A stretch of DNA of 64,000 nt from contig CAVPJG010000007.1 in NCBI GenBank assembly GCA_963705205.1, positions 84,336-148,335 on the forward strand, read 5' to 3'. Made by a program: the position numbers and the translations under genes. The notes under the pieces were generated by a model that searched no databases, was not told the origin of the DNA, and worked only from the letters and a program-made list of their open reading frames with translations. Within the stretch, counting starts at the first letter, position 1, and every line of letters starts with the position of its first letter. The DNA comes from an uncultured Thermoleophilia bacterium. Lineage in GTDB: Bacteria > Actinomycetota > Thermoleophilia > UBA2241. Of this stretch, positions 5,031-61,497 are shown one piece after another.

Positions 5031-5130
5031 GCCGGCCCGGGCGGGTCGGCGAGTCCGGAACGTGGAGAGGCTCAGAGGGGTAGAATACGCGCGACATACG
5101 CAGACCGGTGGTGCGGACACCCGTCAGCAA

Positions 5131-5305
5131 CCTGAGCGCCTGGCCCGCGCGGCGAGCTCCCGCAGGGAGCGGCCCGCGCGGGTGACGAGGTGGAGGTTCA
5201 TCGAAAGACTCGGCGGATGCCTCCCGGCCCGGCACGGTCGTTATCGAGTCGCCAAAACCCGCTGGTGACGGCGGAACAAAACGGCTCGAGGGTGCCGTCC
5301 GCAGC
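5131..5305 (+). ncRNA. glmS ribozyme: glmS ribozyme (GlcN6P-responsive self-cleaving riboswitch) in the 5' leader of glmS
   Basis: The core matches the glmS ribozyme consensus: AGCGCC P1 start, then GACGAGG-UGGAGGUUCAUCGAAAGACUCGGCGGAUGCCUCCCGGC, then a downstream CCGCUGGUGACGGCGGAACAAAAC (GGUGAC) element. It lies directly upstream of the glmS ATG at 5344. Confidence 0.8.
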
Positions 5306-5343
5306 CTGCCCATCTGCGCCCTGATCCAGCGAAGGGAGCACGC

Positions 5344-7173
<1,830 letters not shown>

Positions 7174-7209
7174 GGGCGGACCCTTGGACGCGCAGATGAG
7201 GCGGGCGGG

Positions 7210-7623
7210 GTGATTGGCTTACCGCAGATGCCGCCCGGTGGCCTGCTCTTCGGCCTCGGCATCGACGTGACGGAGGCCGCGCGCGTCCGCAGGCTGCTCG
7301 AGCGGCTGCCGCGCGCCTACGAGCGGCTCTTCAGCGAGCAGGAGCGCGCGTACTGCGACGGCTTCGCCGATCCCTGGTCGCGCTACGCCGCCCGCTTCGC
7401 CGCCAAGGAGGCGGTCGGCAAGGCGCTCGGAATCGGTATCATCGGGTTCGTGTGGCGCGACATCGAGGTACTTTCGGGTGGAAAGCCCCTCATCGCGCTG
7501 CACGGCGGCGTCGCCGACATCGCGCGGCGCCTGGGCGTGACGAGGGTCGAGGTCTCGCTGAGCCACACCGGCGGTATGGCGTACGCCGTGGCCGCCGCAC
7601 TCAAGGAGGACGCGGATGGATGA
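7210..7623 (+). CDS. acpS: holo-[acyl-carrier-protein] synthase
   Basis: LLFGLGIDVTEAARV ... FAAKEAVGKALG ... EVSLSHTGGMAYAVA is the 4'-phosphopantetheinyl transferase pattern. The start could be GTG 7210 or ATG 7228. Confidence 0.85.
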   Translation: MIGLPQMPPGGLLFGLGIDVTEAARVRRLLERLPRAYERLFSEQERAYCDGFADPWSRYAARFAAKEAVGKALGIGIIGFVWRDIEVLSGGKPLIALHGGVADIARRLGVTRVEVSLSHTGGMAYAVAAALKEDADG

Positions 7624-9196
7624 GTCCCTGCTGATGGGGCTGTACACCGCCGACGGCATGCAGAAGGTCGACGGGCTGGCGATCGACGGCATCGGCATCC
7701 CCGGCGGGCACCTGATGGAGCGCGCCGGGCTCGCCGTGGCGACCGAGATCCTCGAGCGGTACGCGCCCGAGGAGGCCGTGGTCTTCGCCGGCAAGGGCAA
7801 CAACGGTGGGGACGGGTTCGTGGTCGCGCGCGAGCTGTTCGATGCGGGCTGCGAGGTCACCGTGTTCCTGCTCGCGGCGCCGGCCGAGTACGGGGGCGAC
7901 GCGAAGCTGAACCTGGACATCCTCACCCGGCTCGGGGTGGACGTGCGCCCCGCGACGGATGGCGACGGGGCGCTCGCCGAGGACGCGATGGTGCTCACGG
8001 AGATGGCCGACGTCGTGGTGGACGCGGTCTTCGGCACCGGCTTCACCGGCGCGGCCAAAGGGCCGGCCGCCGCCGCCATCGAGCTCATGAACGAGGCGCC
8101 TGGCGCCGTGGTGAGCGTCGACATCATGAGCGGCGTCGGCGCGAGCACCGGCGCGGTGCACGGGCCGGCCGTCGAGGCCGACCTCACCGTGACGCTGCAC
8201 GCCGCCAAGGTCGGCCACTTCGTCACGCCCGGGGGCGCGCACTCGGGCGAGGTCGTGATCGCGCCGATCGGCATCCCGGCGCTCTGCGACCAGGACCCGG
8301 GCGTGTGGCTGCTCACCGACGAGGCGATGGGCGAGCTGGTGCTCCCCAAGGGCTCGCTCGACCACAAACGCTCGGTCGGCACGGTCCTCGTCGTCGGCGG
8401 GTCGAAGGGCATGGAGGGCGCCGCCCACATGGCCGCGTTCGCGGCCCTCAGGGGCGGCGCCGGCCTGGTCCACGCCGCGCTGCCCGACGGCGCCGGCGCG
8501 CAGAAGCCGTTCGCCGAGGTCATCACTGTGACCGTCCCCGGCGTCGACGGTCAGTTCGGCATGGCCGCCCGCTCGGCGCTCTTCGCGCAGGCGGACCAGC
8601 TCGGGGCCGTCGCCGTCGGTCCGGGACTCGGCCGTGCCGACGAGGCGCGTTTGCTGGTGCGTGAGCTGCTCGGCGTGGACCGGCCGCTGCTGCTCGACGC
8701 CGACGGCCTGTATGCCCTTGGCGACAAGCTCGAACTCCTCGCGGAGCGCGCGCGGCCCACGGTCATCACGCCGCACGAGGGCGAGCTGGGCCGCCTGATC
8801 GGCCGCCCGGCGGCCGAGGTCGCGGCCCAGCGCCTCGAGTGCGCCCGCTCCGCCGCCAAGCGCGGCGACGTGACCGTCGTCCTCAAGGGCGAGGCGACTA
8901 TCATCGCCGACCCCTCGGGACGGGCCTACGTCGTCCCGACCGGCAACCCCGGCCTCGCTACGCCGGGAACGGGCGACGTGCTCAGCGGTGTCATCGTCGC
9001 CCAGCTCGCGAAGGGCCTGCCGGCCACGGACGCCGCCTGTCTCGGCGCGTACCTCCACGGCTTCGCCGCCGATCTGGCGGCCGAGGAGGCCGTCGGCACC
9101 GAGGCCATGGTGGCGAGCGACCTGTTCCACTCCCTGCCCGCGGCCGTGGAGCGGCTCAAGGCCGGTCCACAGGAGGAGAGCCATGAGCACCACTGA
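7616..9196 (+). CDS. nnr: bifunctional NAD(P)H-hydrate epimerase / ADP-dependent (S)-NAD(P)H-hydrate dehydratase
   Basis: YjeF-N motif GKGNNGGDGFVVAREL and a C-terminal carbohydrate-kinase-like domain (GPGLG ... GTGDVLSGV). The start overlaps the acpS end by 8 nt. Length 526 aa. Confidence 0.9.
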   Translation: MDESLLMGLYTADGMQKVDGLAIDGIGIPGGHLMERAGLAVATEILERYAPEEAVVFAGKGNNGGDGFVVARELFDAGCEVTVFLLAAPAEYGGDAKLNLDILTRLGVDVRPATDGDGALAEDAMVLTEMADVVVDAVFGTGFTGAAKGPAAAAIELMNEAPGAVVSVDIMSGVGASTGAVHGPAVEADLTVTLHAAKVGHFVTPGGAHSGEVVIAPIGIPALCDQDPGVWLLTDEAMGELVLPKGSLDHKRSVGTVLVVGGSKGMEGAAHMAAFAALRGGAGLVHAALPDGAGAQKPFAEVITVTVPGVDGQFGMAARSALFAQADQLGAVAVGPGLGRADEARLLVRELLGVDRPLLLDADGLYALGDKLELLAERARPTVITPHEGELGRLIGRPAAEVAAQRLECARSAAKRGDVTVVLKGEATIIADPSGRAYVVPTGNPGLATPGTGDVLSGVIVAQLAKGLPATDAACLGAYLHGFAADLAAEEAVGTEAMVASDLFHSLPAAVERLKAGPQEESHEHH

Positions 9197-9659: not shown

Positions 9660-10836
9660 GTGCTGGCCGGACGACACCGCGCCGTCGCCGAGGTCGACCT
9701 CGAGGCGATCCGCCACAACGTCCGCCGCCTGAGGCGCGACCTTCCGGGCGGCACCGAGCACTGCGCCGTCGTCAAGGCGAACGGGTACGGCCACGGCGCC
9801 GTGCCTGCCGCGCGCGCCGCGCTCCAGGCCGGCTCCACCTGGCTCGGCGTGGCGACCGCGCCCGAGGCCGAGGAGCTGCGGGCGGCCGGCTTCACCGCGC
9901 CGATCCTCATCTTCGGCCCGCTCACGGGCACCGGTCTGGAGCGGGCCGCGGCCTCGGCGGCCGAGGTCGTCGGGTGGTCCGAGCCGTTCATCGCCGAGGC
10001 GGCCCGCCTCGGCGTCCGCGTCCACGTCAAGTTCGACACGGGGATGGGGCGGCTCGGCGTGCCCGCTCCGGAGGTGGTCCAGTTCTGCGAGCAGGCGCAC
10101 GCGGGAGGTGTCCTCTCCGGTCTGATGAGCCACTTCGCCACGGCGGACGAGGAGGACGCGAGCTTCTTCGAGCAGCAGCTCGGGCGCTTCACCAGTCTGG
10201 CCGGAGAGCTCAAGCAACGGTACCCCGGTCTGCTGTGCCACACCGCGAACAGCGCGGCGACCCTGCGGGACGTGCGCGCCCACTTCGACATGGTGCGCAC
10301 CGGCATCGCCCTGTACGGGCTGGCGCCGGCCAACGACGACCCGTTCAAGGACGAGCTGCGCCCGGCGATGAAGTTCGTCTCGTACCTCGCCGGCGTCCGC
10401 GAAGCTCTGCCCGGGGATTCGGTCGGGTACGGCGCGTACGTGGCGCGCCGAGGAGCCCACGCGCATCGGTATCGTCCCGGTCGGCTACGCCGACGGCGTG
10501 CGTCGCGCGCTCGGCAACCGCGGAGAGGTCCTGGTCGCGGGCAGGCGCTGCCCGATCGTCGGCAGGATCAGCATGGACCAGCTGACGGTCAAGCTCCCCG
10601 GCGACTGGGGCCGGGCCGGCGACGAGATCGTACTGTTCGGCGCCGCCGGGGACGGTGTTGCCGGCTCCGCCATCGCGTGGACGGAGCCCCATGAGCCCCG
10701 CCTGGACGCCCCCGAGACGCCGCGCATCCTCTGCGAGGAGGTGGCGCGCCTGCTCGGCACCATCAACTACGAAGTCGCCTGCGACGTGGCGCCGCGGGTG
10801 GTGCGCCGCTACCGCGGCGAGGACCCCGCGGCCTGA
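9660..10836 (+). pseudogene. alr: alanine racemase with an apparent single-base frameshift near 10431-10437 (sequence error or pseudogene)
   Basis: N-terminal frame (9660-~10436) reads AVVKANGYGHG ... GDSVGYG. The +1 frame from ~10437 reads TWRAEEPTRIGIVPVGYADGVRRALGNRG ... VGRISMDQLTV ... to 10836. Joining the two frames gives a normal ~390-aa Alr. The shift lies in ggcgcgtacgtgg. Confidence 0.8.
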
Positions 10837-13818: not shown

Positions 13819-15411
13819 TTATCGGAGGACGGAGTTGCCGCTGACGGTGTTGGTGCTGCCGCCCTCGTTCGCGATGACTCGCGCGCTGGCGGTCGGGGAG
13901 GAGGGGAGCAGGACGGTGTTGCCGGTCACCGTGTTGGAGGTGCACTCTTCGAAGATGGAGATGGTGCGGAAGAAGTCCGCGTAGTAGAGCGTGACGCCGT
14001 TGTCGGTCCGGTAGTCGAAGGTGTTGTTGCGCACCACGGTGTGGGTCGTGCCTTTGGTCAGCTTGACGCCGCTGACACGGCCCTTGCCGATCACGTTGTT
14101 CTCGATGACCGTGCCCTGACGCGACGGCTCGACGCAGATGGAGTACGGCCAGGCGGCGTTGCCGCCATCGTGCGGCAGGCCGCAGCCTTTGATCAGGTTG
14201 TCCCGGATCACCACGTCGTTGTGGTACTCGCGCGTCATGAGGCCGTCGAAGTCGAGCGTGAACTCGGCGGTCACCTCGAACGTGTTGCCCTCGATCAGCA
14301 CGTCGCCCCAGTAGCCGTCGCCCGCCTCGTCGCTCTGCCAGAAGACGATGCCGTAGGTGGGCGAGCCGGTGGCGACGCCGTTGGAGACGCCGAAGTGGCA
14401 GTCGAGGATGTTCACGTCGCGGATGACGGTACCCTGACCGGTGTCCACGGCGAACCAGAGCAGGCCGGCGCCGCCGTTTGAGGCCCAGGTGCCGAAGTTG
14501 CGGGCGAACTCGCAGCTCTGGAAGGTGATCCCGGTCACGGCACGGTTGTTCCAGCCGATGACCCCGCCGCCGTCGCCGCCGCCGAAGAAGCGGACGCGCT
14601 CGAACCTGGTGTTGGAGGTCGAGTAGCTCGCGGGCTCGTGCGAATGCCCCTTCCCGCCCACGGCGAGGTCGCGGACGGTAGTGTTGGATCCCCAGGTGAG
14701 GGAGCCGACGATGCGGGTCCGGTCCATGCCCTGTCCGATGACGGTCACACCGCTGGGCACCCGGACGTCACCCGTGAACGTGCCCGCCGGGCAGATCACC
14801 GTCTGGCCGCTGGTCGCGTTGTTGATGGCTGAAAGGGGGTTGCTCGTCGTCGGGGCCGGTGTGGTCGGCGTCGGGGCCGGCGGCGGTGTGACCGTCGGGG
14901 TCGGCGTCGGTGTTGCCGTGGGGGTCGGCGTCGACGGCTTCCGTGGCCGGCGAAGCTTGGCCGAGAGCGCGATGAGGTCCGTGCGTGCCTGCGAGAGGGC
15001 GCTGACCGCGCGGCTGCGTGCCTTCTTGAGCGTGCGTTGGGAGAGGCGGATCGCGTCCTTGTCGAGGTGGCCGGCGGCGGCGTTGCAGGCGAGCACCTCG
15101 GCCACGAAGGCGTCGTCCGCCTCTGTGGCCGCCAGCACGGACTCGCCGAGTCGAGTGAGGCTGAGGTTCATGCGTCTGACGAGGGCGTTGGTCCTGAGGA
15201 CCTTGCCGCGGAGGCGAGCCGAGCGCTTCACCTTCCCGGACATCTGAGTCAACCTGTCGATCTTCTTGTGGAGCTTCTCTGCGCGCTGTTCGATCCCGGA
15301 CAGATGCTTCGGCGCCGCGGTATCCGACGCGGCCGCTGCGGACATGGGGACGAGCAGACTGATGATGAGGATCCCGGTGACGACCGCGGGGGATGTCTTC
15401 AACCTGGACAC
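13819..15411 (-). CDS. secreted right-handed parallel beta-helix repeat protein with N-terminal helical region and Pro/Thr-rich linker
   Basis: GTG start at 15411 sits 6 nt after GAGGAGG. Signal peptide MSRLKTSPAVVTGILIISLLVPMSAAAAS, then ~150 aa helical/basic, then linker PSTPTPTATPTPTPTVTPPPAPTPTTPAPTT, then beta-helix repeats (VIRDNLI, NNVIGKG, TVVRNNTF, VTGNTVL). Confidence 0.7.
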   Translation of the reverse strand: MSRLKTSPAVVTGILIISLLVPMSAAAASDTAAPKHLSGIEQRAEKLHKKIDRLTQMSGKVKRSARLRGKVLRTNALVRRMNLSLTRLGESVLAATEADDAFVAEVLACNAAAGHLDKDAIRLSQRTLKKARSRAVSALSQARTDLIALSAKLRRPRKPSTPTPTATPTPTPTVTPPPAPTPTTPAPTTSNPLSAINNATSGQTVICPAGTFTGDVRVPSGVTVIGQGMDRTRIVGSLTWGSNTTVRDLAVGGKGHSHEPASYSTSNTRFERVRFFGGGDGGGVIGWNNRAVTGITFQSCEFARNFGTWASNGGAGLLWFAVDTGQGTVIRDVNILDCHFGVSNGVATGSPTYGIVFWQSDEAGDGYWGDVLIEGNTFEVTAEFTLDFDGLMTREYHNDVVIRDNLIKGCGLPHDGGNAAWPYSICVEPSRQGTVIENNVIGKGRVSGVKLTKGTTHTVVRNNTFDYRTDNGVTLYYADFFRTISIFEECTSNTVTGNTVLLPSSPTASARVIANEGGSTNTVSGNSVLR

Positions 15412-15785
15412 TGGTGCCTCCTCTGGATCCCAAGGCGAGAGGGGGCTGGCCGGCGCACGGCAAAGCCGCGGTCGCAACGGTGCGACTCACTCTGGGATCG
15501 AATCCTGGGACTAGGCTCCGGCCGAGGCCTGTGACAGTTGAAGCGTCGGCACGATCGAGCGGGAATTGAGGGCAGGCCGCCAACAAGTGTCTGCTGGACT
15601 GTGTACGGCAGAGACGGCAGCCGAGGAGCGTCTGCCGGCGCCGTCGCGCGGTCCAAGGGTTGACGAAGCCGCCAGGCGACTGGCCCAGGGGACGCCAGTC
15701 GTCAGGCTCGGCGTCTTCCAGCCAAAAGAGACGCGACTACCGTTTCGCGGTGCTGTTCACGAGGGTGGCGCCGCGGGACCGTTGC

Positions 15786-17095
15786 CTACCGCGCCTTCTC
15801 CCACTTCTGCAGGTAGGCCACCTCGGCGAGCGTCTTGCCCGCGTCGATCTCGCCGCGCAGGCGGTTCTCCTTCTCGAGCACGTCCATCGCGCGGTTGGCG
15901 AGCTCCACGGCCTGCTCCTTGGGGAGCACCATGACGCCGTCGTCGTCGCCGACGATCCAGTCGCCGGGGCGCACCGTCTGCCCGGCGATGACGATCGGCA
16001 CGTTGATCTCGCCGAAGCCCTTGGGCTCGCCGGCGTTGGCGCAGACCTTGCTGCTGAAGGCGGGGAAGCCGAGGCGCGCGATCTCCGGCGTGTCGCGGAT
16101 CGCGCCCCACACCACGAGACCGGCGAGGCCCTTGACCATGGCGCTGTGCGTGGCCAGCTCGCCCCACATCGCGGGGGCGGCGTCGCAGGCGTCCACGACC
16201 AGCACGTCGCCGGGCTCACAGACGTCGATCGCCTCCACGGGCTTGGCCCAGTCGCCGGCGTAGGTGCGCACGGTGACCGCCGGGCCGCACATGTGCGCGC
16301 CCGGCAGCAGGGGTCGATGCCCGGCAGGCTCGGCTGCCGGTGCCAGGCGTCGCTGACGTTGGCCGTCGAGACCTGCTCGAGCACCGTGCGGATGTCGGCC
16401 GCGCCGGCGCGCTTGTACAGCGTGGTCTCGATGCAGACGCGCTCGTCAACGGCGCGGCGGATCTCGGCGGTGGCCGCCGCCGCGTCGGCCGACTTGGTGA
16501 TGGCGCCGCCGACGACGACGATGCCGGCGCCGGCCTCCACGGCCGCGGCGGCCGTCTCGCTGTTGATGCCGCCGGCCGCCGACACGGGGATGTCGACGGC
16601 CTCGGCCACGGCCTTCAGCGTGTCGAACGGCGCCTCGCCGCGCATCTGCTGGTCGATCGCCGTGTGGATGCCGATGTAGTCGGCGCCGAGCTCCTGGGCG
16701 CGCTTCGCGCGCGCCACCGGGTCGGCGACCTCGATCATGTCGACGATGAGCTTGCAGCCGTAGTTGCGCGCCGCCTCGGCGCACTCCTTGATGGTGCTGT
16801 CGGACGCGGCGCCGAGCACGCCGACAACGCCGGCGCCGGCCTTGGCCGCGTACTCCACCTCGGTGCGGCCGGCGTCCATCGTCTTCATGTCGGCGACGAT
16901 GGTCCGGTCCGGGAACTCGGCCTTCAGGGCCCGGACGGCGTTCAGGCCCTCGGCCTTTATCAACGGCGTGCCTGCCTCGACCCAGTCGGCGCCGCCGGCG
17001 ACGGCCTCCCGCGCGACCTCGAGGGCGCGCGGGAGGTCGACGAAGTCGAGCGCGACCTGGACGAGCGGGCGCTCCCTGCCCGGGTCGCAGGTCAT
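15786..17095 (-). pseudogene. bifunctional 3-hexulose-6-phosphate synthase / RraA-like protein, with an apparent 1-nt deletion in a G4 run at 16310-16313
   Basis: ATG 17095 follows an AGGTGATGG RBS. HPS/KGPDC domain: VALDFVDLPRALEVAREA ... ADMKTMDAG ... GADYIGIH ... VVVGGAITKS. The RraA N-terminus (VSTANVSDAWHRQPSLPGIDP) continues in the same frame. The rest of RraA (GPAVTVRTYAGDW ... VVDACDAAPAMWGELAT ... VVWGAIRD) is in the -1 frame and ends at 15786. Confidence 0.7.
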
Positions 17096-17565
17096 ACGCC
17101 CATCACCTGCACCACGATGCTGCGCTCGCGCGGGCGCGCGTCGAAGTCGCAGAAGACGATCTCCTGCCAGGTGCCCAGGGTGAGGCGTCCGTCGACGATG
17201 GGGATCGTCACCGACGGGCCCACCAGGGCCGCGCGGATGTGCGAGTGCCCGTTGCCGTCGCCGTTGTTGATGTTGTGCTGCCACACGCGGTCGCTCGGCG
17301 TGAGCGTCTCGAGCACGTCCTGCACGTCCTCGATGACGCCGGGCTCGTACTCGATGGTCGTGATCGCGCCGGTCGCGCCGGGAGCGAACACGGTGACGGT
17401 GCCGTCGCGCACGCCGCTCGCGGCGATGTGCTCGCGCACCTCGTCGGTGATGCGGACGATGTCGGCGTTGCCGCGGCTCGAGAACTCGACGGAGCCGGTG
17501 ATCACGCGCACGAGGCCCTCGCGCACGTGGTCCTGCTGTCGGCCGTTGACGAAGACGGTCGCCAT
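17092..17565 (-). CDS. yjbQ: YjbQ/UPF0047 family protein (secondary thiamine-phosphate synthase-like)
   Basis: ATG 17565 is preceded by AAAGGAAGG. ITDEVREHIAASGVRDGTVTVFAPGATGAITTIEYEPGV ... HSHIRAALVGPSVTIPIVDGRLTLGTWQEIVFCDFD is the UPF0047 signature. Its stop overlaps the HPS start (ATGA). Confidence 0.8.
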   Translation of the reverse strand: MATVFVNGRQQDHVREGLVRVITGSVEFSSRGNADIVRITDEVREHIAASGVRDGTVTVFAPGATGAITTIEYEPGVIEDVQDVLETLTPSDRVWQHNINNGDGNGHSHIRAALVGPSVTIPIVDGRLTLGTWQEIVFCDFDARPRERSIVVQVMGV

Positions 17566-17579
17566 GGTGGTCCTTCCTT

Positions 17580-18536
17580 TCATGCGGTCGCGTCCTTGGC
17601 GGGGTACGCGCTGATGGGGTATGACGATGGGGTGGTGAGGTCGCCGCCGACGGGGACCGCGACGGAGACGTTGTCGATGAGGCGGGTGGAGCCGAGGCGG
17701 GCCGCGGCGACGAGCCTGGATCGCGGTCCGAGCGTGCCCTCGGGGACGAACGTGTCCTCGTCCACGACGGCGAGGTAGTCGAGCTCGAACCGCGGGCGCG
17801 CCGGCGCGTCGTCCACCGCGTCGGGGTCCAGCGGCCCGGCCGGCAGCAGCAGGGCGGCCGTCGCCGCGACCACCACGTCCTTGGCGGCGGCGCCCGGGGC
17901 GTCCGCGGCGGCGGCGCCGGCGAGGAGCGCGCGGTAGAGGTCGGGCGCCACCGCGCGCTGTTCCGGCGTGAGACGGACGTTGCGCGAGCTCATCGCCAGA
18001 CCGTCGGGCTCGCGCACCGTCGGCACGCCGGCGACCTCGACCGGCAGGTCGAGGTCGCGCACGCAGCGGCGGACGACGGCCAGCTGCTGCGCGTCCTTCT
18101 CGCCGAGGAACAGCACATCCGGCTGCACCACGCCGAGCAGCTTGGTGACGATGACGGCCACGCCGTCGAAGTGGTCGGGCCGCGAGGCGCCCTCGAAGCT
18201 CTCGGTGAGGGCGCCGCCGACGTGCACGCTGGTGGCGAAGCCCTCCGGGTACATCTCGTCGGCCGTCGGGGCGAACACGATCGCGACGCCCGCCTCCTCC
18301 AGGAGGCGCAGGTCGCGGGCCTCGTCGCGCGGGTACGTGTGGTAGTCCTCGCTACGCCCGAACTGCGCGGGATTCACGAAGACGGAGGCGGCGACCTGAG
18401 CGCAGCGCGCTCTCGCCGCCTCCACCAGGCTCAGGTGACCGGCGTGCAGGGCGCCCATGGTGGGCACGAAGCCGAGAGGGCGCGGGAGGTCGCGCAGCGC
18501 CTCCTGCGCCTCGGCGATGGTCTGGGCGACTATCAC
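17580..18536 (-). CDS. panC: pantoate--beta-alanine ligase
   Basis: GFVPTMGALHAGHLSLV (HIGH-like motif) and VFVNPAQFG; the C-terminal extension is typical of actinobacterial PanC. Length 318 aa. Confidence 0.9.
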   Translation of the reverse strand: MIVAQTIAEAQEALRDLPRPLGFVPTMGALHAGHLSLVEAARARCAQVAASVFVNPAQFGRSEDYHTYPRDEARDLRLLEEAGVAIVFAPTADEMYPEGFATSVHVGGALTESFEGASRPDHFDGVAVIVTKLLGVVQPDVLFLGEKDAQQLAVVRRCVRDLDLPVEVAGVPTVREPDGLAMSSRNVRLTPEQRAVAPDLYRALLAGAAAADAPGAAAKDVVVAATAALLLPAGPLDPDAVDDAPARPRFELDYLAVVDEDTFVPEGTLGPRSRLVAAARLGSTRLIDNVSVAVPVGGDLTTPSSYPISAYPAKDATA

Positions 18537-19483
18537 GGCTGGCCTCCCGCCCAGTGCCCGGCGGCGGGCTGCGCGCCGTCGGCGCCGCCGGTCTCGCCGC
18601 CGGCGTCTTCGTCCCTCAGCAACTGCCGCAGTGTCGCCACCTGCTCGTCGTCGAGCCGCGGCGCGGCAAGGGTGAGCGCCTCGAGGCTCAACGCACGGTA
18701 GGTGCGTGCGAGCCGCGGGCTCTCGCGGTCGAGCAGGCGGAGGTGAGCGCGCACGGTGCCGATGTCACCGCGCGCGACCGGACCCGTCAGCGCGAACGCA
18801 GGCTCCCCGCTCCGCAGCAGGTTGCGCATGGTCGTCTCGAGGAGCACGGAGAGGTGGTCAAGGCCGCGCGTCTCGCCGGTGGCCTCGTCCATGAGGCGCT
18901 TGGCCTCGCTCTCGAGGGCTACGAGCAGGTTGCAGCCCACCACGGCGGCCAGGTGATACAGCGTCTTCTGTTCGTCTGCCAGACGGAACGGGCGCATGCG
19001 GAGTCGGCCGGCGAGCTTCTCCCCGAGTCGCAGGTCGCGATCGTCGAGCACGGTGACGGCGCAGGGGACGTCCTGCAACAGCCCCGCGTTCGGCTCGCCG
19101 GTGAACGTCTGCAGAGGGTGCAGGCAGAGCACGCGCACACCCTGCTCGTACAGGGGCTTGAGCAGGTGCACCGAGCCGAGGCCGCTGGAGTGCAGGGCGA
19201 TCGGCTGGGGCGCACCGGGGCGGCGGATGGCCGGGAGCGCCTCTGCCAGCCGGCCGGCCACCGCGTAGATCTCGTCGTCCGGCACCGCGAGCCAGAAGGC
19301 GTCGGCCTCGAGCGCGGCGTCGCGCACGCGCACACGGGGGATGCCGCCGAAGAGGCTGGTGTCGTCGTCGGCGTGCACGCCGACTGCGCTGACGGTGAGC
19401 TCGGCCTCCTGCAGGCCCGCGAGGACGGCCGATCCCAGGCGTCCGGGACCGATCACGCAGAAACGATACGCGTCGAGGGTCAA
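18533..19483 (-). CDS. Rossmann-fold NAD(P)-binding protein with DUF2520 domain (often found next to pan genes in actinobacteria)
   Basis: FCVIGPGRLGSAVLAGL GxGxxG motif followed by a DUF2520-like C-terminal half. The stop overlaps the panC start (ATGA). The start is uncertain: TTG 19483 or GTG 19459 are candidates. The upstream 110 codons of ORF 19825 look non-coding and overlap FmdB. Confidence 0.55.
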   Translation of the reverse strand: MTLDAYRFCVIGPGRLGSAVLAGLQEAELTVSAVGVHADDDTSLFGGIPRVRVRDAALEADAFWLAVPDDEIYAVAGRLAEALPAIRRPGAPQPIALHSSGLGSVHLLKPLYEQGVRVLCLHPLQTFTGEPNAGLLQDVPCAVTVLDDRDLRLGEKLAGRLRMRPFRLADEQKTLYHLAAVVGCNLLVALESEAKRLMDEATGETRGLDHLSVLLETTMRNLLRSGEPAFALTGPVARGDIGTVRAHLRLLDRESPRLARTYRALSLEALTLAAPRLDDEQVATLRQLLRDEDAGGETGGADGAQPAAGHWAGGQP

Positions 19484-22572: not shown

Positions 22573-23795
22573 ATAGCCGACGCAGTCCCGCCATCGAGCG
22601 GGGCGCCGCAGGAGCACCGCTCAATAGCCGACGCAGTCCCGCCATCGAGCGGGGCGCCGCAGGAGCACCGCTCAATAGCCGACGCAGTCCCGCCATCGAG
22701 CGGGGCGCCGCAGGAGCACCGCTCAGCGCGGACACCGGACAGGCTTCGCCCGCCGGCCTCACCCTCGCCGTCGAGACGTCGTGCGACGACACCAGCGCGG
22801 CGGTCGTGCGCGGCCGTGAGGTCCTCTCGTCTATCGTCTCGTCCCAGAACGAGCTGCACGCGCGGTTCGGCGGCGTGGTGCCGGAGGTGGCCTCGCGCCG
22901 CCATACGGAACTGGTCAACGAGGTCGTCGCCGAGGCGATGAGTCAGGCCGGCGCCGGCTGGGACGACCTCGGCGCCGTGGCCGTGACGCAGGGCCCGGGG
23001 CTCATCGGCGCCCTGCTCGTCGGGTTGGCCACCGGCAAGTCGCTGGCCTACCGGCGCGGGCTGCCGCTGATCCCCGTGAACCACCTGCAGGGACACATCG
23101 CCGCCAACTACGCCCTCGGGGTCGAGGCGCCGTTCGTCTGCCTGGTCGCCAGCGGCGGGCACACGCTGCTCGCCGTCGTCGAGGAGGGCGTGAGCTACCG
23201 CGTCGCCGCCAAGACCATGGACGACGCGGCCGGCGAGGCCTTCGACAAGGGCGCCCGGCTGCTGGGGCTCGGCTACCCCGGCGGCAAGGAGCTCGACGAG
23301 CTGGCGGCGCACGGCGACCCGGGGTTCGCCCGCTTCCCGCGCGCCGTACCCAGGGGTCGTGGCTTCAGCTTCAGCGGCCTCAAGACGGCGCTGCTCTACG
23401 ACCTCAGGGGCAGAGAGGCGGCCGAGGTCGCCGCCCACCGCGCCGACATCGCGGCCTCGTACCAGGCCGCCATCGTCCGCCAGTTGGTGGACAAGACGCT
23501 GGCCGGCGCCGCCGCCGAGGGACTGCGCACCGTCGCCGTCGCCGGCGGCGTGGCCGCCAATTCGGGCCTGCGCCGGGCCTTGACCGAGGCCTGCGAGGCC
23601 GAGGGCCTGCGGCTGTCGTTGCCGCCCTTCAGCCTGTGCACCGACAACGCCGGCATGATCGGCCTTGCGGCCGGGTTCCTGCCGGCGCTTCGCTGGCCGG
23701 ACTACCTCGGCCTGGACGCGTTCGCCAGCGACGCCGAGGCCAAGGCGGCGCGTCCGGTGCGCAAGAGCTCCGCGCGCCGCCCATCAGGTCGCTAG
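22569..23795 (+). CDS. tsaD: tRNA N6-adenosine threonylcarbamoyltransferase TsaD, with N-terminal 3x17-aa repeat extension
   Basis: The conserved core (LTLAVETSCDDTSAAVV ... VTQGPGLIGALLVGL ... HLQGHIAA ... ASGGHT) begins right after the repeats. The only in-frame start between the rimI stop and the core is GTG 22569, which overlaps the rimI stop as GTGA, like the other junctions in this operon. Confidence 0.8.
   Translation: MNSRRSPAIERGAAGAPLNSRRSPAIERGAAGAPLNSRRSPAIERGAAGAPLSADTGQASPAGLTLAVETSCDDTSAAVVRGREVLSSIVSSQNELHARFGGVVPEVASRRHTELVNEVVAEAMSQAGAGWDDLGAVAVTQGPGLIGALLVGLATGKSLAYRRGLPLIPVNHLQGHIAANYALGVEAPFVCLVASGGHTLLAVVEEGVSYRVAAKTMDDAAGEAFDKGARLLGLGYPGGKELDELAAHGDPGFARFPRAVPRGRGFSFSGLKTALLYDLRGREAAEVAAHRADIAASYQAAIVRQLVDKTLAGAAAEGLRTVAVAGGVAANSGLRRALTEACEAEGLRLSLPPFSLCTDNAGMIGLAAGFLPALRWPDYLGLDAFASDAEAKAARPVRKSSARRPSGR
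22572..22724 (+). repeat. perfect 3x51-bp direct tandem repeat (aatagccgacgcagtcccgccatcgagcggggcgccgcaggagcaccgctc), in frame with tsaD
   Basis: Units at 22572-22622, 22623-22673 and 22674-22724 are identical. Each encodes NSRRSPAIERGAAGAPL in the tsaD frame. Confidence 0.95.
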
Positions 23796-23896
23796 CCAGG
23801 TCCCGCTCACTCGACGAGCTGTCCGTCCGAACAGCTCGGACTCGACCGGCCGGTCGCCTCGGGGCTCGATGCCGGAATGCTAGACTCGGGCTCAGC

Positions 23897-25601
23897 ATGA
23901 CGCACCGGCCCGAATCCGTGTTCCCACCGGCACCCCTCAGCGAGGCGCCGCGCACGGCGGCGAACCTCTTCGTCGACTGCCTCGAGAACGAGGGCGTGGA
24001 GTTCGTCTTCGGCATCCCGGGCGAGGAGACCCTGGACCTCAGCGAGGCGCTCGACCGCTCGCAGCTCATCACCTTCGTCCCCACCCGCCACGAGCAGGGG
24101 GCGGCGTTCATGGCTGACGCCTACGGCCGCCTCACCGGCCGCCCCGGCGTCTGTCTCGCGACCCTCGGCCCCGGCGCCAGCAACCTTGCCACGGGCGTGG
24201 GCGACGCGACGCTCGACCACGCGCCTCTGGTGGCGCTCACGGGCCAGACCGGTCTCGCGGGGATGCACAAGGAGACCACCCACCAGTTCATCGACACCGT
24301 CGAGATGCTGCATCCCATGACGAAGTGGAACACCCGCATCCACCACCCGCGCATGGTGCCCGAGGCGGTACGCAAGGCGTTCAGCATCGCCGCCGCCGAG
24401 AAGCCAGGCGCCACGCATCTCGAGCTGCCCGAGGACGTGATGGAGATGGCGGTCACCGGCTCGCCGCTGCCGCGCGGCCCGGAGCCGATGGTCGAGGCCG
24501 ACCCCGTGGGCCTGCTACGCGCCGCCGAGGTCATCCAGGGGGCGAAGCGGCCGGTGCTGCTCGTGGGCAACGGCGTCGTGCGCCAGCACGCGGCCGCGGC
24601 CCTGCGCGCTTTCTGCGAGCAGACGGGCCTGCACGCGGTCACGACCTTCATGGGCAAGGGCGTCCTCGACGCCGCCGACCCGCACTTCCTCTTCACCGCG
24701 GGGCTGCGCCGGCAGGACTATCCGCAGGGCCTCCTCGGCCGGGCGGATCTCGTGGTCAGCGTCGGGTACGACATGATCGAGTGGCCGCCCTCGGCCTGGA
24801 ACCCCGACGGGGGGCAGCGCATCATCTGCATCGACACGGTGCCGCCCGAGATCGACGCCCACTTCATCCCCGAGGTGGAGCTCATCGGCGACCTCTCGCG
24901 CATCATCTTCCAGCTCACTGGAGCTTCTGGAGGGGAAGAAGGTGGCGAGCATGGAGGTCCGGCCGTACCGGCGCGCGCTCCGCCGCGTGCTCGACGCGGG
25001 CACCGACGAGGACTTCCCGGTCAAGCCGCAGCGCGTGCTGCGCGACCTGCGCGAGCTGCTCGCGCCGGAGGACGTGCTCGTCAGCGACGTCGGCGCGCAC
25101 AAGCTCTGGGTGGCGCGCTTCTGGGAGGCGCGCGAGCCCAACACCGTGCTCATCAGCAACGGGTTCGCCGCCATGGGCTTCGGCCTCCCTGCGACGATCG
25201 CCGCGGCCCTGGCGCGCCGTGGCCGCGGCAAGGTCGTCTGCATCAGCGGCGACGGCGGCTTCCTGATGAACGTCCAGGAACTGGAGACGGCCCGCCGTCT
25301 CGGCCTGCCGTTCGTGATCCTCGTGTGGACCGACGGCGGCTACGGCCTCATCGAGATGCACCAGCGGCGCAAGTACGGCCGCATCGCCGGCACCCGCTTC
25401 GACAACCCCGACCTGGTATCGCTCGCCCGCTCGTTCGGCGTGGAGGGGCTCCGCGCCGAGAAGGCGGGCGACGTCAAGCCCCTCCTCGCCCGCGCCCTCA
25501 GGCACCCCGGACCCGTTGTCATCGACGTCCCGATAGACTACGGTGAGAACGACAAGCTGGCGGTCGACCTCTGGCAACTCGCTCCCGAGGCACTGTCCTA
25601 G
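23897..25601 (+). pseudogene. thiamine-diphosphate enzyme of the acetolactate synthase large-subunit family, with an apparent 1-nt insertion near 24920
   Basis: ATG 23897 follows a TAGACT -10-like box. The Pyr and middle domains (FVFGIPGEETLDL ... GRPGVCLATLGPGASNLATGV) end near 24918. The TPP-binding domain (SDVGAHKLWVARFW ... GFAAMGFGLPATIAAAL ... ISGDGGFLMNVQELETA) is in the +1 frame to 25601. Total ~568 aa if joined. Confidence 0.75.
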
Positions 25602-46658: not shown

Positions 46659-46743
46659 CGGAGAAGCGCCGGCCGGGGCGGTGGGCCGCGAGGCACGCAC
46701 CGCCCCGGCCGGGCTGCGCATGAGCAGACGGAGGAGCCGGCAG

Positions 46744-48572
46744 ATGAGACGCAGCCACGCCGCGCAGGGGCAGACGGCCGCGCCGCGCCGGCTTCTCGCC
46801 GCTCTTGCCTGCGCGGTGGCGGTGCTCGCCGGCTTGGCCGCACCTTCCGCACCGCTCCCCGCGGCGGCCGCTGCCACGTCGACCGAGCCGCTCGCGTACC
46901 GGATCGGGACCACCGTGGAGTGCGACGGCGTGAACCCGTTCGTCTCGTCGAGCCCGATCTCCCGCGAGTGCCTGCAGCTCGGGTACGACTTCCTCACCCG
47001 GTACGACGCCGACTACCGGCCCGTGCCGGACATCGCGGAGAGCTGGGTGGTCTCGAGCGACGGGACCACCTGGACCTTCCGCGTACGCGAGGGCATGACC
47101 TGGCACGACGGGGTCCCGCTCACCGCCCACGACGTGGCGTTCACCTACGGTCTGATCCTCGAGACGCGGGCGCCGGCCTACGCTCACCACCTCGCCGGCG
47201 TGAAGAGCGTCACGGCGCCGGACGACCGCACGGTGGTGATCGTCACCCGCCGGCCGAGGGCGGACCTGCTCGGCCTGGCCGTGCCCATCCTCCCCGAGCA
47301 CCTGTGGAAGAGCGTCGATCCCGACGCGCTCGACGTCTCCGGGAGCCCGCCGTTCGTCGGCTCCGGACCGTTCCGCATCGAGGAGGTGCAGAGCGGCGGG
47401 GTCCGGCTCGCGGCCAACGACGCGTATCCCGACGCGCTCGGCGGGCGTCCGTCACTCGACGTGCTCGAGTTCGTCGTCGAGCGCGATGCGGGCGCGCTGG
47501 TCGCGGCGTACCAGGCCGGGTCACTCGACGCCGTCGCGGGTTACCCGCCCGCCTACGCGGCAGCCCTCGACGACGCGCCGGGGACGACTGCTGTCGCCGC
47601 CCCGGCCATCGGTCTGCGTGAACTGGTCTTCAACTGCTGGGACGACCGCCGAAGCGGCGGAGACCCTCGGCTGCTCGACCCCTCGATCCGCCGCGCCGTG
47701 CACTGGGCCATCGACAAGGAGAAGCTCGTCCAGGCGGCGACCGCCGGCCTCGCCGTCCCCGGCACCTCACTGCTCTCACCGGCGCAGCCCGGCTGGCGCT
47801 GGGAGGTCCCCGATGCCGGGCTGTACAGGTACGACCCCCTGCGCGCCAAGCGAATCCTGGAAGATGCCGGGTACGCCGACCGCGACGGGGACGGCGTGCG
47901 CGAGGACGCGGCGGACCGCCCGCTCTCCTTCCGTCTCGTGGCCTTCGCAGAGCACCCGGAAGACCAGGCGGCGGCGCGGATGATCGCGCGCTGGTGCCGT
48001 GACGTCGGGATCGACCTCGCGATCGAGGTCCGGGAAGAGGCTGGCTTCAGCGACGACCTGCACCGCCACGCGGATTTCGATGCCTTCCTCTCGACCCGGT
48101 CGGCGACGTCGACCCGGGCTTCCTCCTCGACGGCTTCACCACCGCGCGGATCGGCGAAGGGAGCGAGTCGCGCTACTCGGATCCGTTGTACGACAGCCTC
48201 TACGCCGCCCAGAGGGAGGCCATCGACCCCGCCGACCCGGGCGACACGACGCGCCGCAAGAACATCACCGACGCCATGCAGAAGGTCCTGTATCGCGACG
48301 ACCCCTCGATCGTCCTCTGGTACGAGATGGACCTGCAGGCCTTCCGCACCGACCGCTGGACGGGCTACGCGCCCGCCCCTACGGATGCGGGCGCCCCCTT
48401 CTGGAACCAGCTTCACGCCACCTACCTGGCGCTGCGGCCGCTGCGCGTGGTGGAGCCGGAGCCGCCGGCGCCGGCGGTCCTGCCGTGGCTGGCGGCTGGG
48501 GCACTCGCCGCTGCCGGCGCCGGCGTCGCCCTGTGGCTGCGCCGGCGGCGGAGAACGGGGGGTGCGGGATGA
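46744..48572 (+). pseudogene. second family-5 ABC substrate-binding protein with signal peptide and C-terminal TM anchor; apparent 1-nt deletion near 48085-48093
   Basis: ATG 46744 sits 8 nt after GGAGGAG. Signal peptide MRRSHAAQGQTAAPRRLLAALACAVAVLAGLAAPSA. SBP_bac_5 body to ...HADFDAFL (frame 1). Continuation DPVGDVDPGFLLDGFTTARIGEGSESRYSDPLYDSLYAAQ ... VLPWLAAGALAAAGAGVALWLRRRRR in the adjacent frame to 48572. Confidence 0.7.
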
Positions 48573-48612
48573 CCGCCCTCCGCATCGACACACCTACACG
48601 AGAGGATGCCGC

Positions 48613-50088
48613 ATGACCGAGCTCGCCGCCCTCTGGCCCGACGAAGCGATCGAGGCGATGCACCTCGCGGCGCTCGGCCTGCTCGAACGGGCAGGCGTGC
48701 GTGTGGAGTCGGCCAACGCGAGAGATCTCCTGCTCGCCTCCGGCTGCGTCCCTCTCGGCGAGGACCGGCTCACCATCCCGCGGCGAGCCGTCGAGGATGC
48801 TCTCGCCGCCTGCCCGCGCGCGTACACGCTCGCGGCGCGCGACCCCGAGCGCGCGCTCCTCATGGACCCGGACCCGGGGGAGACCTACGTGCACAACCTC
48901 GGGGGAGCCCGCGACGTGAGCGACGCGCGCACGGGCGCCGGCCGCCGCGCGACGTTGCGGGATCAGGTGCTGGCCACGCGCGTCATGCACCACCTCGTCC
49001 ACCAGCAGCAGGTCACATCGCTCTGGCAGCCGGAGGACGTGCCCGACCTGCTCGAACCGCTGTACTCGTACCTGATCCTCGCGTACGAGACCGACAAGGC
49101 GATCGGTGGGCCCGGCATCTCCCATCCGTTCCAGGCGTTGTACCTGCAGGAGATGGCCCGCGCGGTGACCGGCGCGGACGGCGAGGGCGGGGTGTACCCC
49201 ATCGACCTCGCCTTCTCGCCGGTCAGCCCGCTGATTCTCGGCGGCGATGTCTCCGACGCCCTCGTCGAGCAGGTACGCCGGGGCGGCGTCGCGGTCGAGA
49301 TCCTGCCCTGCCCGGCCGCCGCCACGACGGCGCCCGGCGCGCTCTCCGCGGCGCTGACGCAGCAGCACGCCGAAGTGCTCGCCGGGGTGGTGCTCGCGCA
49401 GGTGGCTGCGCCCGGCACGCCGGTGTACTACGGGCCGCGACTCAGTGCCGTGGACCCACGCAGCGGCGTGGTGGTCAGCGGCACGCCGGAGACAGGCGTC
49501 GCGTCGGTCGCGGCCGTCCTGCTGGCGCGCCGTTGCGGCCTCGCCTGCGACTGCTACGGTCCCTGCAGCGACAGCAAGGTCGTCGACGCGCAGTTCGGCT
49601 ACGAGCGCTCGGTCAACGCGCTCCTCGGCCTGGCGCCCAGACCGCGCCTGCTCTCCGGCGTCGGCGAGATCCAGGCCGGCGTCGCCAGCTGCCTGGAGGT
49701 GCTTGTCATCGACGACGAGGTACTCAACAACGCGCGCTACGCCCTCACGCCGCGGCCCTGGGACGTGGACGCGCTGAACCTGGACGCGATGGTCGACGGC
49801 GTGCTCTCCGGCCGTGGGTTCCTCGGCGCCAAGCACACCCGCCGGTACATCCGCAGCGAGTTCGTCAGCCCGCTGCTCAGCTACCGCGGCGGTCTCGGCG
49901 ACTGGCTCGCCTCGGGCCGTACCGGGCTCGTGGACCTCGCCTCCGACAGAGCGGCCGAGCTCGCCGGCCGCGATCCTCTCGGCCTGCCGGCCGACATCCT
50001 GGACGAGCTCATCGCGCTGATCGACCGGTGTGCCGCCGGCCTCGGCATCAGCGGCCACCCCGACCCGCGCCGCGTGCTCGGCCTGTAG
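48613..50088 (+). CDS. MttB-superfamily methyltransferase (trimethylamine methyltransferase family; non-pyrrolysine quaternary-amine type)
   Basis: 491 aa. MTELAALWPDEAIEAMHLAALGLLERAGVRVESANARDLLLASGCVPLGEDRLTIPRRAVEDALAACP, then a TIM-barrel body with LSPLILGGD... and PETGVASVAAVLLARRCGL, which is the MTTB-family architecture. There is no in-frame amber codon. Confidence 0.7.
   Translation: MTELAALWPDEAIEAMHLAALGLLERAGVRVESANARDLLLASGCVPLGEDRLTIPRRAVEDALAACPRAYTLAARDPERALLMDPDPGETYVHNLGGARDVSDARTGAGRRATLRDQVLATRVMHHLVHQQQVTSLWQPEDVPDLLEPLYSYLILAYETDKAIGGPGISHPFQALYLQEMARAVTGADGEGGVYPIDLAFSPVSPLILGGDVSDALVEQVRRGGVAVEILPCPAAATTAPGALSAALTQQHAEVLAGVVLAQVAAPGTPVYYGPRLSAVDPRSGVVVSGTPETGVASVAAVLLARRCGLACDCYGPCSDSKVVDAQFGYERSVNALLGLAPRPRLLSGVGEIQAGVASCLEVLVIDDEVLNNARYALTPRPWDVDALNLDAMVDGVLSGRGFLGAKHTRRYIRSEFVSPLLSYRGGLGDWLASGRTGLVDLASDRAAELAGRDPLGLPADILDELIALIDRCAAGLGISGHPDPRRVLGL

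Positions 50089-61420: not shown

Positions 61421-61497
<77 letters not shown>

Follow-up and report, generated by a model that had tools for sequence, protein, structure and literature searches.

A hexulose-6-phosphate synthase/RraA-like fusion gene in an uncultured Thermoleophilia bacterium, split by a frameshift that is probably an assembly error

We analysed a 64-kb stretch of DNA (contig CAVPJG010000007.1, positions 84,336 to 148,335; hereafter the window) from an uncultured Thermoleophilia bacterium, in which a gene at 15786..17095 on the minus strand joins a 3-hexulose-6-phosphate synthase (HPS) domain to an RraA-like domain and is interrupted by a frameshift. Judged by its sequence, the gene is one member of the known family NF005442/PRK07028, which has these same two domains. 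Comparison with its relatives suggests that the frameshift is probably an indel error of assembly or basecalling, not biology, and the organism very probably makes an intact protein of 436 aa. The features of the gene are as follows.

15786..17095, minus strand: HPS/RraA-like fusion gene (NF005442 family), 436 codons plus stop after restoration of one base, two frames as assembled
16463..17065, minus strand: 3-hexulose-6-phosphate synthase domain, residues 11-211 (Pfam OMPdecase, 1e-34 after repair)
15927..16366, minus strand: RraA-like (class II aldolase/decarboxylase-type) domain, residues 244-390 (PF03737), spanning the frameshift
16314..16317, minus strand: site of the missing base, codon 261; ATC-GA-CCC in the window, ATC AAG/CGG/AGG/CGT CC(G/C) in relatives
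16310..16313, minus strand: run of four G on the plus strand (four C on the minus strand), coding for Pro262 and the first base of Leu263

RESULTS

Two reading frames, one protein family

The gene starts at the ATG at 17095-17093. The start frame encodes the HPS domain and the beginning of the RraA-like domain (...STANVSDAWHRQPSLPGID; ...VSTANVSDAWHRQPSLPGID), followed by 192 residues of nonsense rich in Arg, Pro, Ser and Ala up to a stop at 15737, which makes a read-through open reading frame (ORF) of 452 aa. The rest of the RraA-like domain (...RPLLPGAHMCGPAVTVRTYAGDW...) lies in the -1 frame and ends at the TAG at 15788-15786. An initial annotation of this DNA had already described an HPS domain whose frame continues into the first ~45 residues of an RraA-like domain, the remainder being in the -1 frame, and both coordinates and frames were verified. 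A nonsense tail of this length without stops is possible because the window has a G+C content of 70.5%, which makes out-of-frame stops rare. Two ORFs on the opposite (plus) strand, 15660-16679 and 16340-17614, were rejected as antisense artefacts of the same 70% G+C, the codon-position GC backing the minus-strand frames only.

As assembled, the upstream piece matches Pfam OMPdecase/HUMPS (3.2e-35), and the downstream piece matches Pfam RraA-like over profile positions 29-152 only (9.9e-43). Against NF005442, a model of 430 positions with a curated cutoff of 593 bits, the two pieces align with positions 2-260 (334.3 bits) and 263-429 (253.4 bits), and each fragment alone falls below the cutoff. 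Since the pieces match complementary halves of a single model, chance is excluded and the observation is real. The domain order is that of the family, and only its uninterrupted ORF is missing, broken by a 1-nt deletion at 16314-16317. One added base gives a 436-aa protein that covers 429/430 positions of NF005442 (profile 2-429), with a score of 599.4 bits if the restored codon is Asp and 599.9 bits if it is Arg.

A profile search with the OMPdecase/HPS family and PF03737, put forward as a check in the initial annotation, recovered both domains. The HPS half scores 218.5 bits with TIGR03128 (RuMP_HxlA; cutoff, 200) over profile positions 1-204 of 205, which identifies it as an HPS at the equivalog-domain level. 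Its best sequence match among the PDB structures is 9lj9, an HPS chain of 426 aa (1.9e-62), followed by the Mycobacterium gastri HPS 3ajx (1e-40). Enzymes of the orotidine 5'-monophosphate decarboxylase suprafamily to which HPS belongs, together with 3-keto-L-gulonate 6-phosphate decarboxylase, have an active site composed of a metal-binding Glu, a DxKxxD motif and a catalytic His. All of these are present here (E40, D69-x-K71-x-x-D74, and H144) and are invariant among 15 aligned sequences.

The RraA-like half, once repaired, covers the complete PF03737 profile (positions 1-152; 7.1e-47; 159.9 bits, above the gathering score). The closest structure is 3noj, a 4-hydroxy-4-methyl-2-oxoglutarate/4-carboxy-4-hydroxy-2-oxoadipate (HMG/CHA) aldolase (4e-26), and R334-D335 align with its VRDT motif. 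The equivalog models of RraA itself score far below their cutoffs (PRK09372, 59 versus 136 bits; TIGR02998, 26.8 versus 241), and those of HMG/CHA aldolase also stay well short of theirs (PRK09262, 136.0 versus 179 bits; TIGR02798, LigK, 108.4 versus 304.5). As this half lies below every equivalog that it resembles, we describe it as an RraA-fold domain of unassigned specificity and not as a demonstrated RNase regulator.

Position of the missing base

Compared with its orthologues in L001-L003 (DNA identity of 92-94%), the 1310-nt gene shows a single indel, and the same is seen against relatives of 92-95% DNA identity. Eight blastn alignments place the gap at 16314 or 16317, and a mafft alignment likewise supports this site. 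In the direction of the gene, the gap thus falls just 5' of the C4/G4 run and not clearly inside it. The relatives read GGC ATC (AAG|CGG|AGG|CGT) CC(G|C) CTG CTG, that is, G-I-(K/R)-P-L-L, where the window reads GGC ATC -GA CCC CTG CTG, and the residues RPLLPG are already present in the -1 frame of the window. All 14 close homologues and 61 of the 85 related loci have Lys or Arg as residue 261, and none of the 85 has Asp or Glu there. The Pseudomonas putida HMG/CHA aldolase (3noj) also has Arg-Pro at the position of the frameshift, and an Arg repair outscores an Asp repair by 3.3-3.7 bits in three models of RraA-like aldolases. From these alignments, the lost base would most simply be the one that opens an Arg codon, (C/A)GA, and the indel site probably adjoins the homopolymer instead of lying within it.

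The initial annotation had placed one extra G in the run at 16310-16313. This part of its proposal stands insofar as one base restores the frame and yields one fusion protein. The position within the run is less well supported, as the alignments point to 16314-16317 and a base added to the run would give Asp261, the residue absent from all 85 loci. We therefore rejected a repair inside the G4 run as workable but less parsimonious than the repair to an Arg codon. JGI metagenome contigs, scanned for the exact pattern of the junction with 0 or 1 extra base (CTGCCGGGCATCN{0,1}GACCCCTGCTGCCGGG), gave no match, so this resource neither independently confirms nor contradicts the deletion.

Intact relatives are widespread

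A protein search returned at least 8,000 matches, and the best 120, which were listed, range from 84% to 97% in identity and from 429 to 479 aa in length, each with PF00215 and PF03737. The closest relatives of the window gene come from metagenome-assembled genomes (MAGs) of uncultured Thermoleophilia, where intact orthologues with 95-97% amino acid identity are found in the same gene neighbourhood, which places the window in that lineage. None of the 85 loci fetched from genomes is the window itself, the DNA identity reaching at most ~95% in the gene and ~84-90% in the flanks. The fusion is matched continuously in 84 of these 85, and the exception, L065, is broken at another site. No relative with two separate genes and proper stops was found, a situation that the initial annotation had named as one that would speak against a fusion.

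In a survey that took a single genome for each GTDB species, at least 534 genomes encode a relative of the fusion, and the architecture is also found in thousands of metagenome proteins. The carriers include Thermoleophilia and other Actinomycetota, Desulfobaccales/Syntrophobacterales, Firestonebacteria, Omnitrophota, Elusimicrobia, Planctomycetes (including a Brocadiaceae genome) and Poribacteria. The architecture is therefore a known, widespread and curated NCBIfam equivalog and not an occasional oddity. The initial annotation was right that such fusions exist, although its wording, an architecture reported in some genomes, understates how common they are. Its suggestion to search the databases for HPS-RraA fusions and their neighbourhoods found fusions widely and a shared operon in the close loci.

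Many of the matches (P0011, P0012, P0014 and others) are named "3-hexulose-6-phosphate synthase/6-phospho-3-hexuloisomerase" by JGI, yet their C-terminal domain is actually PF03737 and not SIS, the domain of 6-phospho-3-hexuloisomerase (PHI). From the domain content, this naming looks like a propagated misannotation.

Origin of the frameshift

The fusion gene is not the only broken gene of the window, which the initial annotation had not noticed. A frame plot of GC by codon position over the 64 kb reveals four switches of frame on the same strand without a stop codon, the fusion gene included. The alanine racemase at 9660-10836 (plus strand) has its Ala_racemase_N domain at 9660-10430 and its Ala_racemase_C domain at 10456-10833 in another frame, and the window carries a base near 10433 that no aligned relative has. 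A thiamine pyrophosphate (TPP) enzyme resembling acetolactate synthase, at 23636-25601 (plus strand), carries TPP_N and TPP_M at 23636-24919 and TPP_C at 24942-25598 in a different frame. It has one extra base near 24917-24922 compared with L001 and L002, and the protein is 567 aa long in relatives. The last is a family-5 solute-binding protein (SBP_bac_5) on the plus strand, in which the frame changes near 48090-48110, so that the motif DFDAFLS and GDVDPGFLLDGF...YRDDPSIVLWY are read in different frames, and the C-terminal part ends at a stop at 48572. The original frame of this gene stays open into the next one and produces a spurious "SBP-MttB" ORF of 1135 aa (46681-50088, plus strand). The adjoining gene, at ~48620-50088 on the plus strand, encodes a homologue of the trimethylamine methyltransferase MttB (Pfam PF06253, 5.4e-60).

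At least four conserved genes broken within 64 kb, by insertions as well as deletions, constitute a signature of indel errors rather than of gene loss. The constraint on the fusion gene points in the same direction. Compared with the closest relative, the 175 codons after the shift contain 17 synonymous and 6 nonsynonymous codon differences, and the 258 codons before it contain 24 and 11. Past the shift, only one residue is novel and specific to the window. The predominance of synonymous change beyond the shift, together with this single unique residue, suggests that the gene is not decaying. The type of data is also relevant. Many of the close relatives are MAGs of the Microflora Danica (MFD) series, which are Nanopore-only assemblies that received one round of Medaka polishing (PMC12313526). 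Among them is L065 (positions 7001-8279; MAG MFD00032.bin.2.227), where an extra T (GCGAATGCGC versus GCGAA-GCGC in relatives) splits the fusion at residue ~128-130. An indel at a separate site in a Nanopore-only MAG indicates that sporadic indels do occur in such data.

Several points weigh against an artefact and against the functional reading given below. The argument for an error is indirect, drawn from sequence comparison rather than from reads or coverage. All four indels lie outside long homopolymers, the classical context of long-read errors. A recent genuine frameshift would leave an identical pattern of synonymous and nonsynonymous differences, and four real pseudogenes per 64 kb are conceivable, if unlikely, in a decaying lineage. 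Last, the roles of the RraA-like half and of the whole fusion are predicted.

A genuine and very recent frameshift would mean that the gene has only just become a pseudogene, or that this population carries a loss-of-function allele at the strain level. The sequence as given does have the deletion, and the indel of the fusion gene is outside any long homopolymer. The HPS half might in this case still be made, carrying the nonsense tail of 192 residues. We nevertheless consider such a mutation unlikely, as an error accounts better than simultaneous gene loss for the frameshifts in three other conserved genes of the 64 kb, the constraint is not relaxed past the shift, and all relatives but one are intact. 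A programmed -1 ribosomal frameshift or a transcriptional slippage at C CCC, giving an HPS-only product and the full fusion, is very improbable. In principle, the tRNA-Pro in the P site might shift its pairing from CCC onto the overlapping C CCC, with ...GIDPLLPG... as the product. However, no heptamer of the form X XXY YYZ occurs in GGC ATC GAC CCC TGC, efficient slippage would need a run much longer than four C, and the zero-frame product would go on for its 192 nonsense residues without a nearby stop. Besides, 84 of the 85 related loci lack the shifted arrangement (the exception is shifted elsewhere), as do the protein matches listed, and the resulting Asp261 would be without precedent in the 85 loci. 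An arrangement that is not conserved effectively refutes programmed frameshifting.

Hardly conceivable at all is a pair of separate genes, one for HPS alone and one for an RraA-like protein alone that would begin at ATG 16292. This ATG does open an ORF of 168 aa (15786-16292). However, that ORF begins at position 29 of the RraA-like profile and position 263 of NF005442, so that the N-terminal part of the fold is absent from it and is coded upstream in the other frame. No Shine-Dalgarno-like sequence was found before ATG 16292, the HPS frame is free of stops for 575 nt, and the relatives have a single ORF, none with a stop and a start at the junction. Taken together, explanations other than an artefact or a recent mutation retain very little probability, and an indel error is the one that we prefer.

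Comparison with known systems

The repaired gene has the domain order and length of NF005442, [quoted passage not shown], from which the window copy differs by the frameshift as assembled. The second part of that family name is not supported for the RraA-like domain, given how far below their cutoffs the RraA equivalogs score. The HPS domain aligns over its full length with stand-alone HPS and with HPS fused to PHI (3ajx, 9lj9 and NF041755, HxlAB), with both the DxKxxD region and the His retained. From its length of 426 aa and a weak second match at residues 270-322, 9lj9 looks like one of the HPS-PHI fusions. The difference lies in the C-terminal partner, which is a SIS/PHI domain in these fusions and an RraA-like domain in the window gene, and NF041755 is accordingly matched by the HPS half only (226 bits versus a cutoff of 500).

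The HMG/CHA aldolase/oxaloacetate decarboxylase (LigK/PcmE; 3noj of P. putida) gives a fold-level match across nearly the whole RraA-like domain. The Arg-Asp pair of VRDT and the Arg-Pro at the frameshift site are both common to the two, whereas the window domain is fused to HPS and scores well below the equivalog cutoffs. The archaeal Fae-Hps fusion (NF009833) offers an analogy only, as an HPS joined to a second domain that possibly handles the formaldehyde side. Its domain order and partner differ from those of the window gene, and only the HPS half is matched (130 bits versus a cutoff of 274).

Operon and gene neighbourhood

The fusion is the last gene of a four-gene unit, DUF2520-panC-yjbQ-fusion, whose other features are the following.

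18533..19483, minus strand: Rossmann-like + DUF2520 oxidoreductase (PanG-type ketopantoate reductase-like; PF10727 and PF10728)
17580..18536, minus strand: panC, pantoate-beta-alanine ligase (Pfam Pantoate_ligase, 1.4e-92; 4-nt overlap on each side)
17092..17583, minus strand: yjbQ (UPF0047; Pfam UPF0047, 1.5e-38; TIGR00149, 112.5 bits versus a cutoff of 67.75)
15732..15749, minus strand: terminator-like hairpin with a T-rich tail, 37 nt past the fusion stop (consensus scan only)

Every junction of the unit is a 4-nt overlap of start and stop. That between yjbQ and the fusion is an ATGA (ATG 17095-17093, TGA 17094-17092), so that the coordinates agree with the coupling proposed in the initial annotation, and its placement of yjbQ after panC and a DUF2520 Rossmann gene is likewise backed by the Pfam matches and the 4-nt overlaps. 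By comparison with the orthologues in L003 and L002, the DUF2520 gene likely starts at TTG 19483, preceded by GGAGAGG. The hairpin is the probable end of the operon. A passage of PMC4572677, citing Miller et al. 2013, describes DUF2520 oxidoreductases as the PanG type of ketopantoate reductase, and on the strength of that passage, the first two genes of the operon, with panC as the second, are a pantothenate pair. A protein of 552 aa (13819-15477, minus strand), with a Thr/Pro-rich linker and a C-terminal region of the right-handed beta-helix/NosD-like type, lies ~300 nt downstream of the operon, and its adjacency to the fusion is not conserved in the relatives.

The same gene order is found in every close locus (at least 77% identity) with enough upstream flank. 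In about 19 of the 55 distant loci (57-69% identity), the gene just upstream of the fusion, in the same orientation, is yjbQ. These yjbQ-adjacent loci include Omnitrophota, Planctomycetes, Firestonebacteria and other Actinomycetota (examples are L040, L058, L062, L064, L066, L070, L074, L075, L078, L082 and L085). A PHI-like gene with a SIS domain is directly upstream of the fusion in another 12 of the 55, mainly in Desulfobaccales and Syntrophobacterales, and takes the position of yjbQ in L038, L046-L049, L051-L053, L056, L057, L059 and L063. This adjacency supports a genuine chemistry of the ribulose monophosphate (RuMP) type for the HPS half, in some lineages at least.

The initial annotation had remarked that no PHI partner is adjacent in the window, and neither tblastn nor a hidden Markov model built from the 12 PHI-like neighbours found PHI/hxlB anywhere else in the 64 kb, the sole SIS match being GlmS (5269-7170). 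Upstream of this GlmS-like ORF, which is on the plus strand, there is a glmS ribozyme at 5124-5298 (plus strand; Rfam RF00234, 91.7 bits). The sole tRNA of the window is a tRNA-Met (CAT) at 61421-61497 (plus strand).

DISCUSSION

Proposed function

A search of the literature on the HPS and RraA-like fusion or its chemistry returned nothing relevant. The roles put forward in the initial annotation (formaldehyde fixation, pentose synthesis by reverse RuMP, or aldolase chemistry) are speculative, and the neighbourhoods give indirect hints only. The functional reading follows what is known of the two families. The N-terminal half would catalyse the Mg2+-dependent and reversible condensation of formaldehyde and ribulose-5-phosphate, interconverting these two substrates and hexulose-6-phosphate. 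The C-terminal half would be a divalent-metal-dependent 2-oxoacid aldolase/decarboxylase rather than a regulator of RNase E.

A further idea, which we regard as quite unlikely, draws by analogy on the domain content, the Arg-Asp motif and the gene neighbourhoods. Under it, the NF005442 fusion and YjbQ would form an uncharacterised formaldehyde-channelling module, in which the HPS half would cleave hexulose-6-phosphate (the RuMP reaction in reverse) to yield ribulose-5-phosphate, and the RraA-like half, acting as a class II aldolase, would trap the freed formaldehyde on a 2-oxoacid. With pyruvate as the acceptor the product would be 4-hydroxy-2-oxobutanoate, while in the panG-like/panC operon of Thermoleophilia the acceptor might be alpha-ketoisovalerate and the product ketopantoate. 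If this were true, the ketopantoate route would be a folate-independent substitute for PanB, and the module would be a counterpart of the archaeal Fae-Hps fusion.

Implications

The consequence for the assembly is one of quality control. Conserved genes in the window contain about one indel per 16 kb, and this probably holds for the whole assembly, so that other ORFs of the assembly that look split or strangely fused, such as the SBP-MttB ORF, should not be counted as biology. For the fusion gene itself, what remains is a known and curated family in which the standout feature of this copy, the frameshift, is most likely an assembly error. The recurrent pairing of yjbQ with the fusion across phyla is a modest lead that could guide biochemical study.

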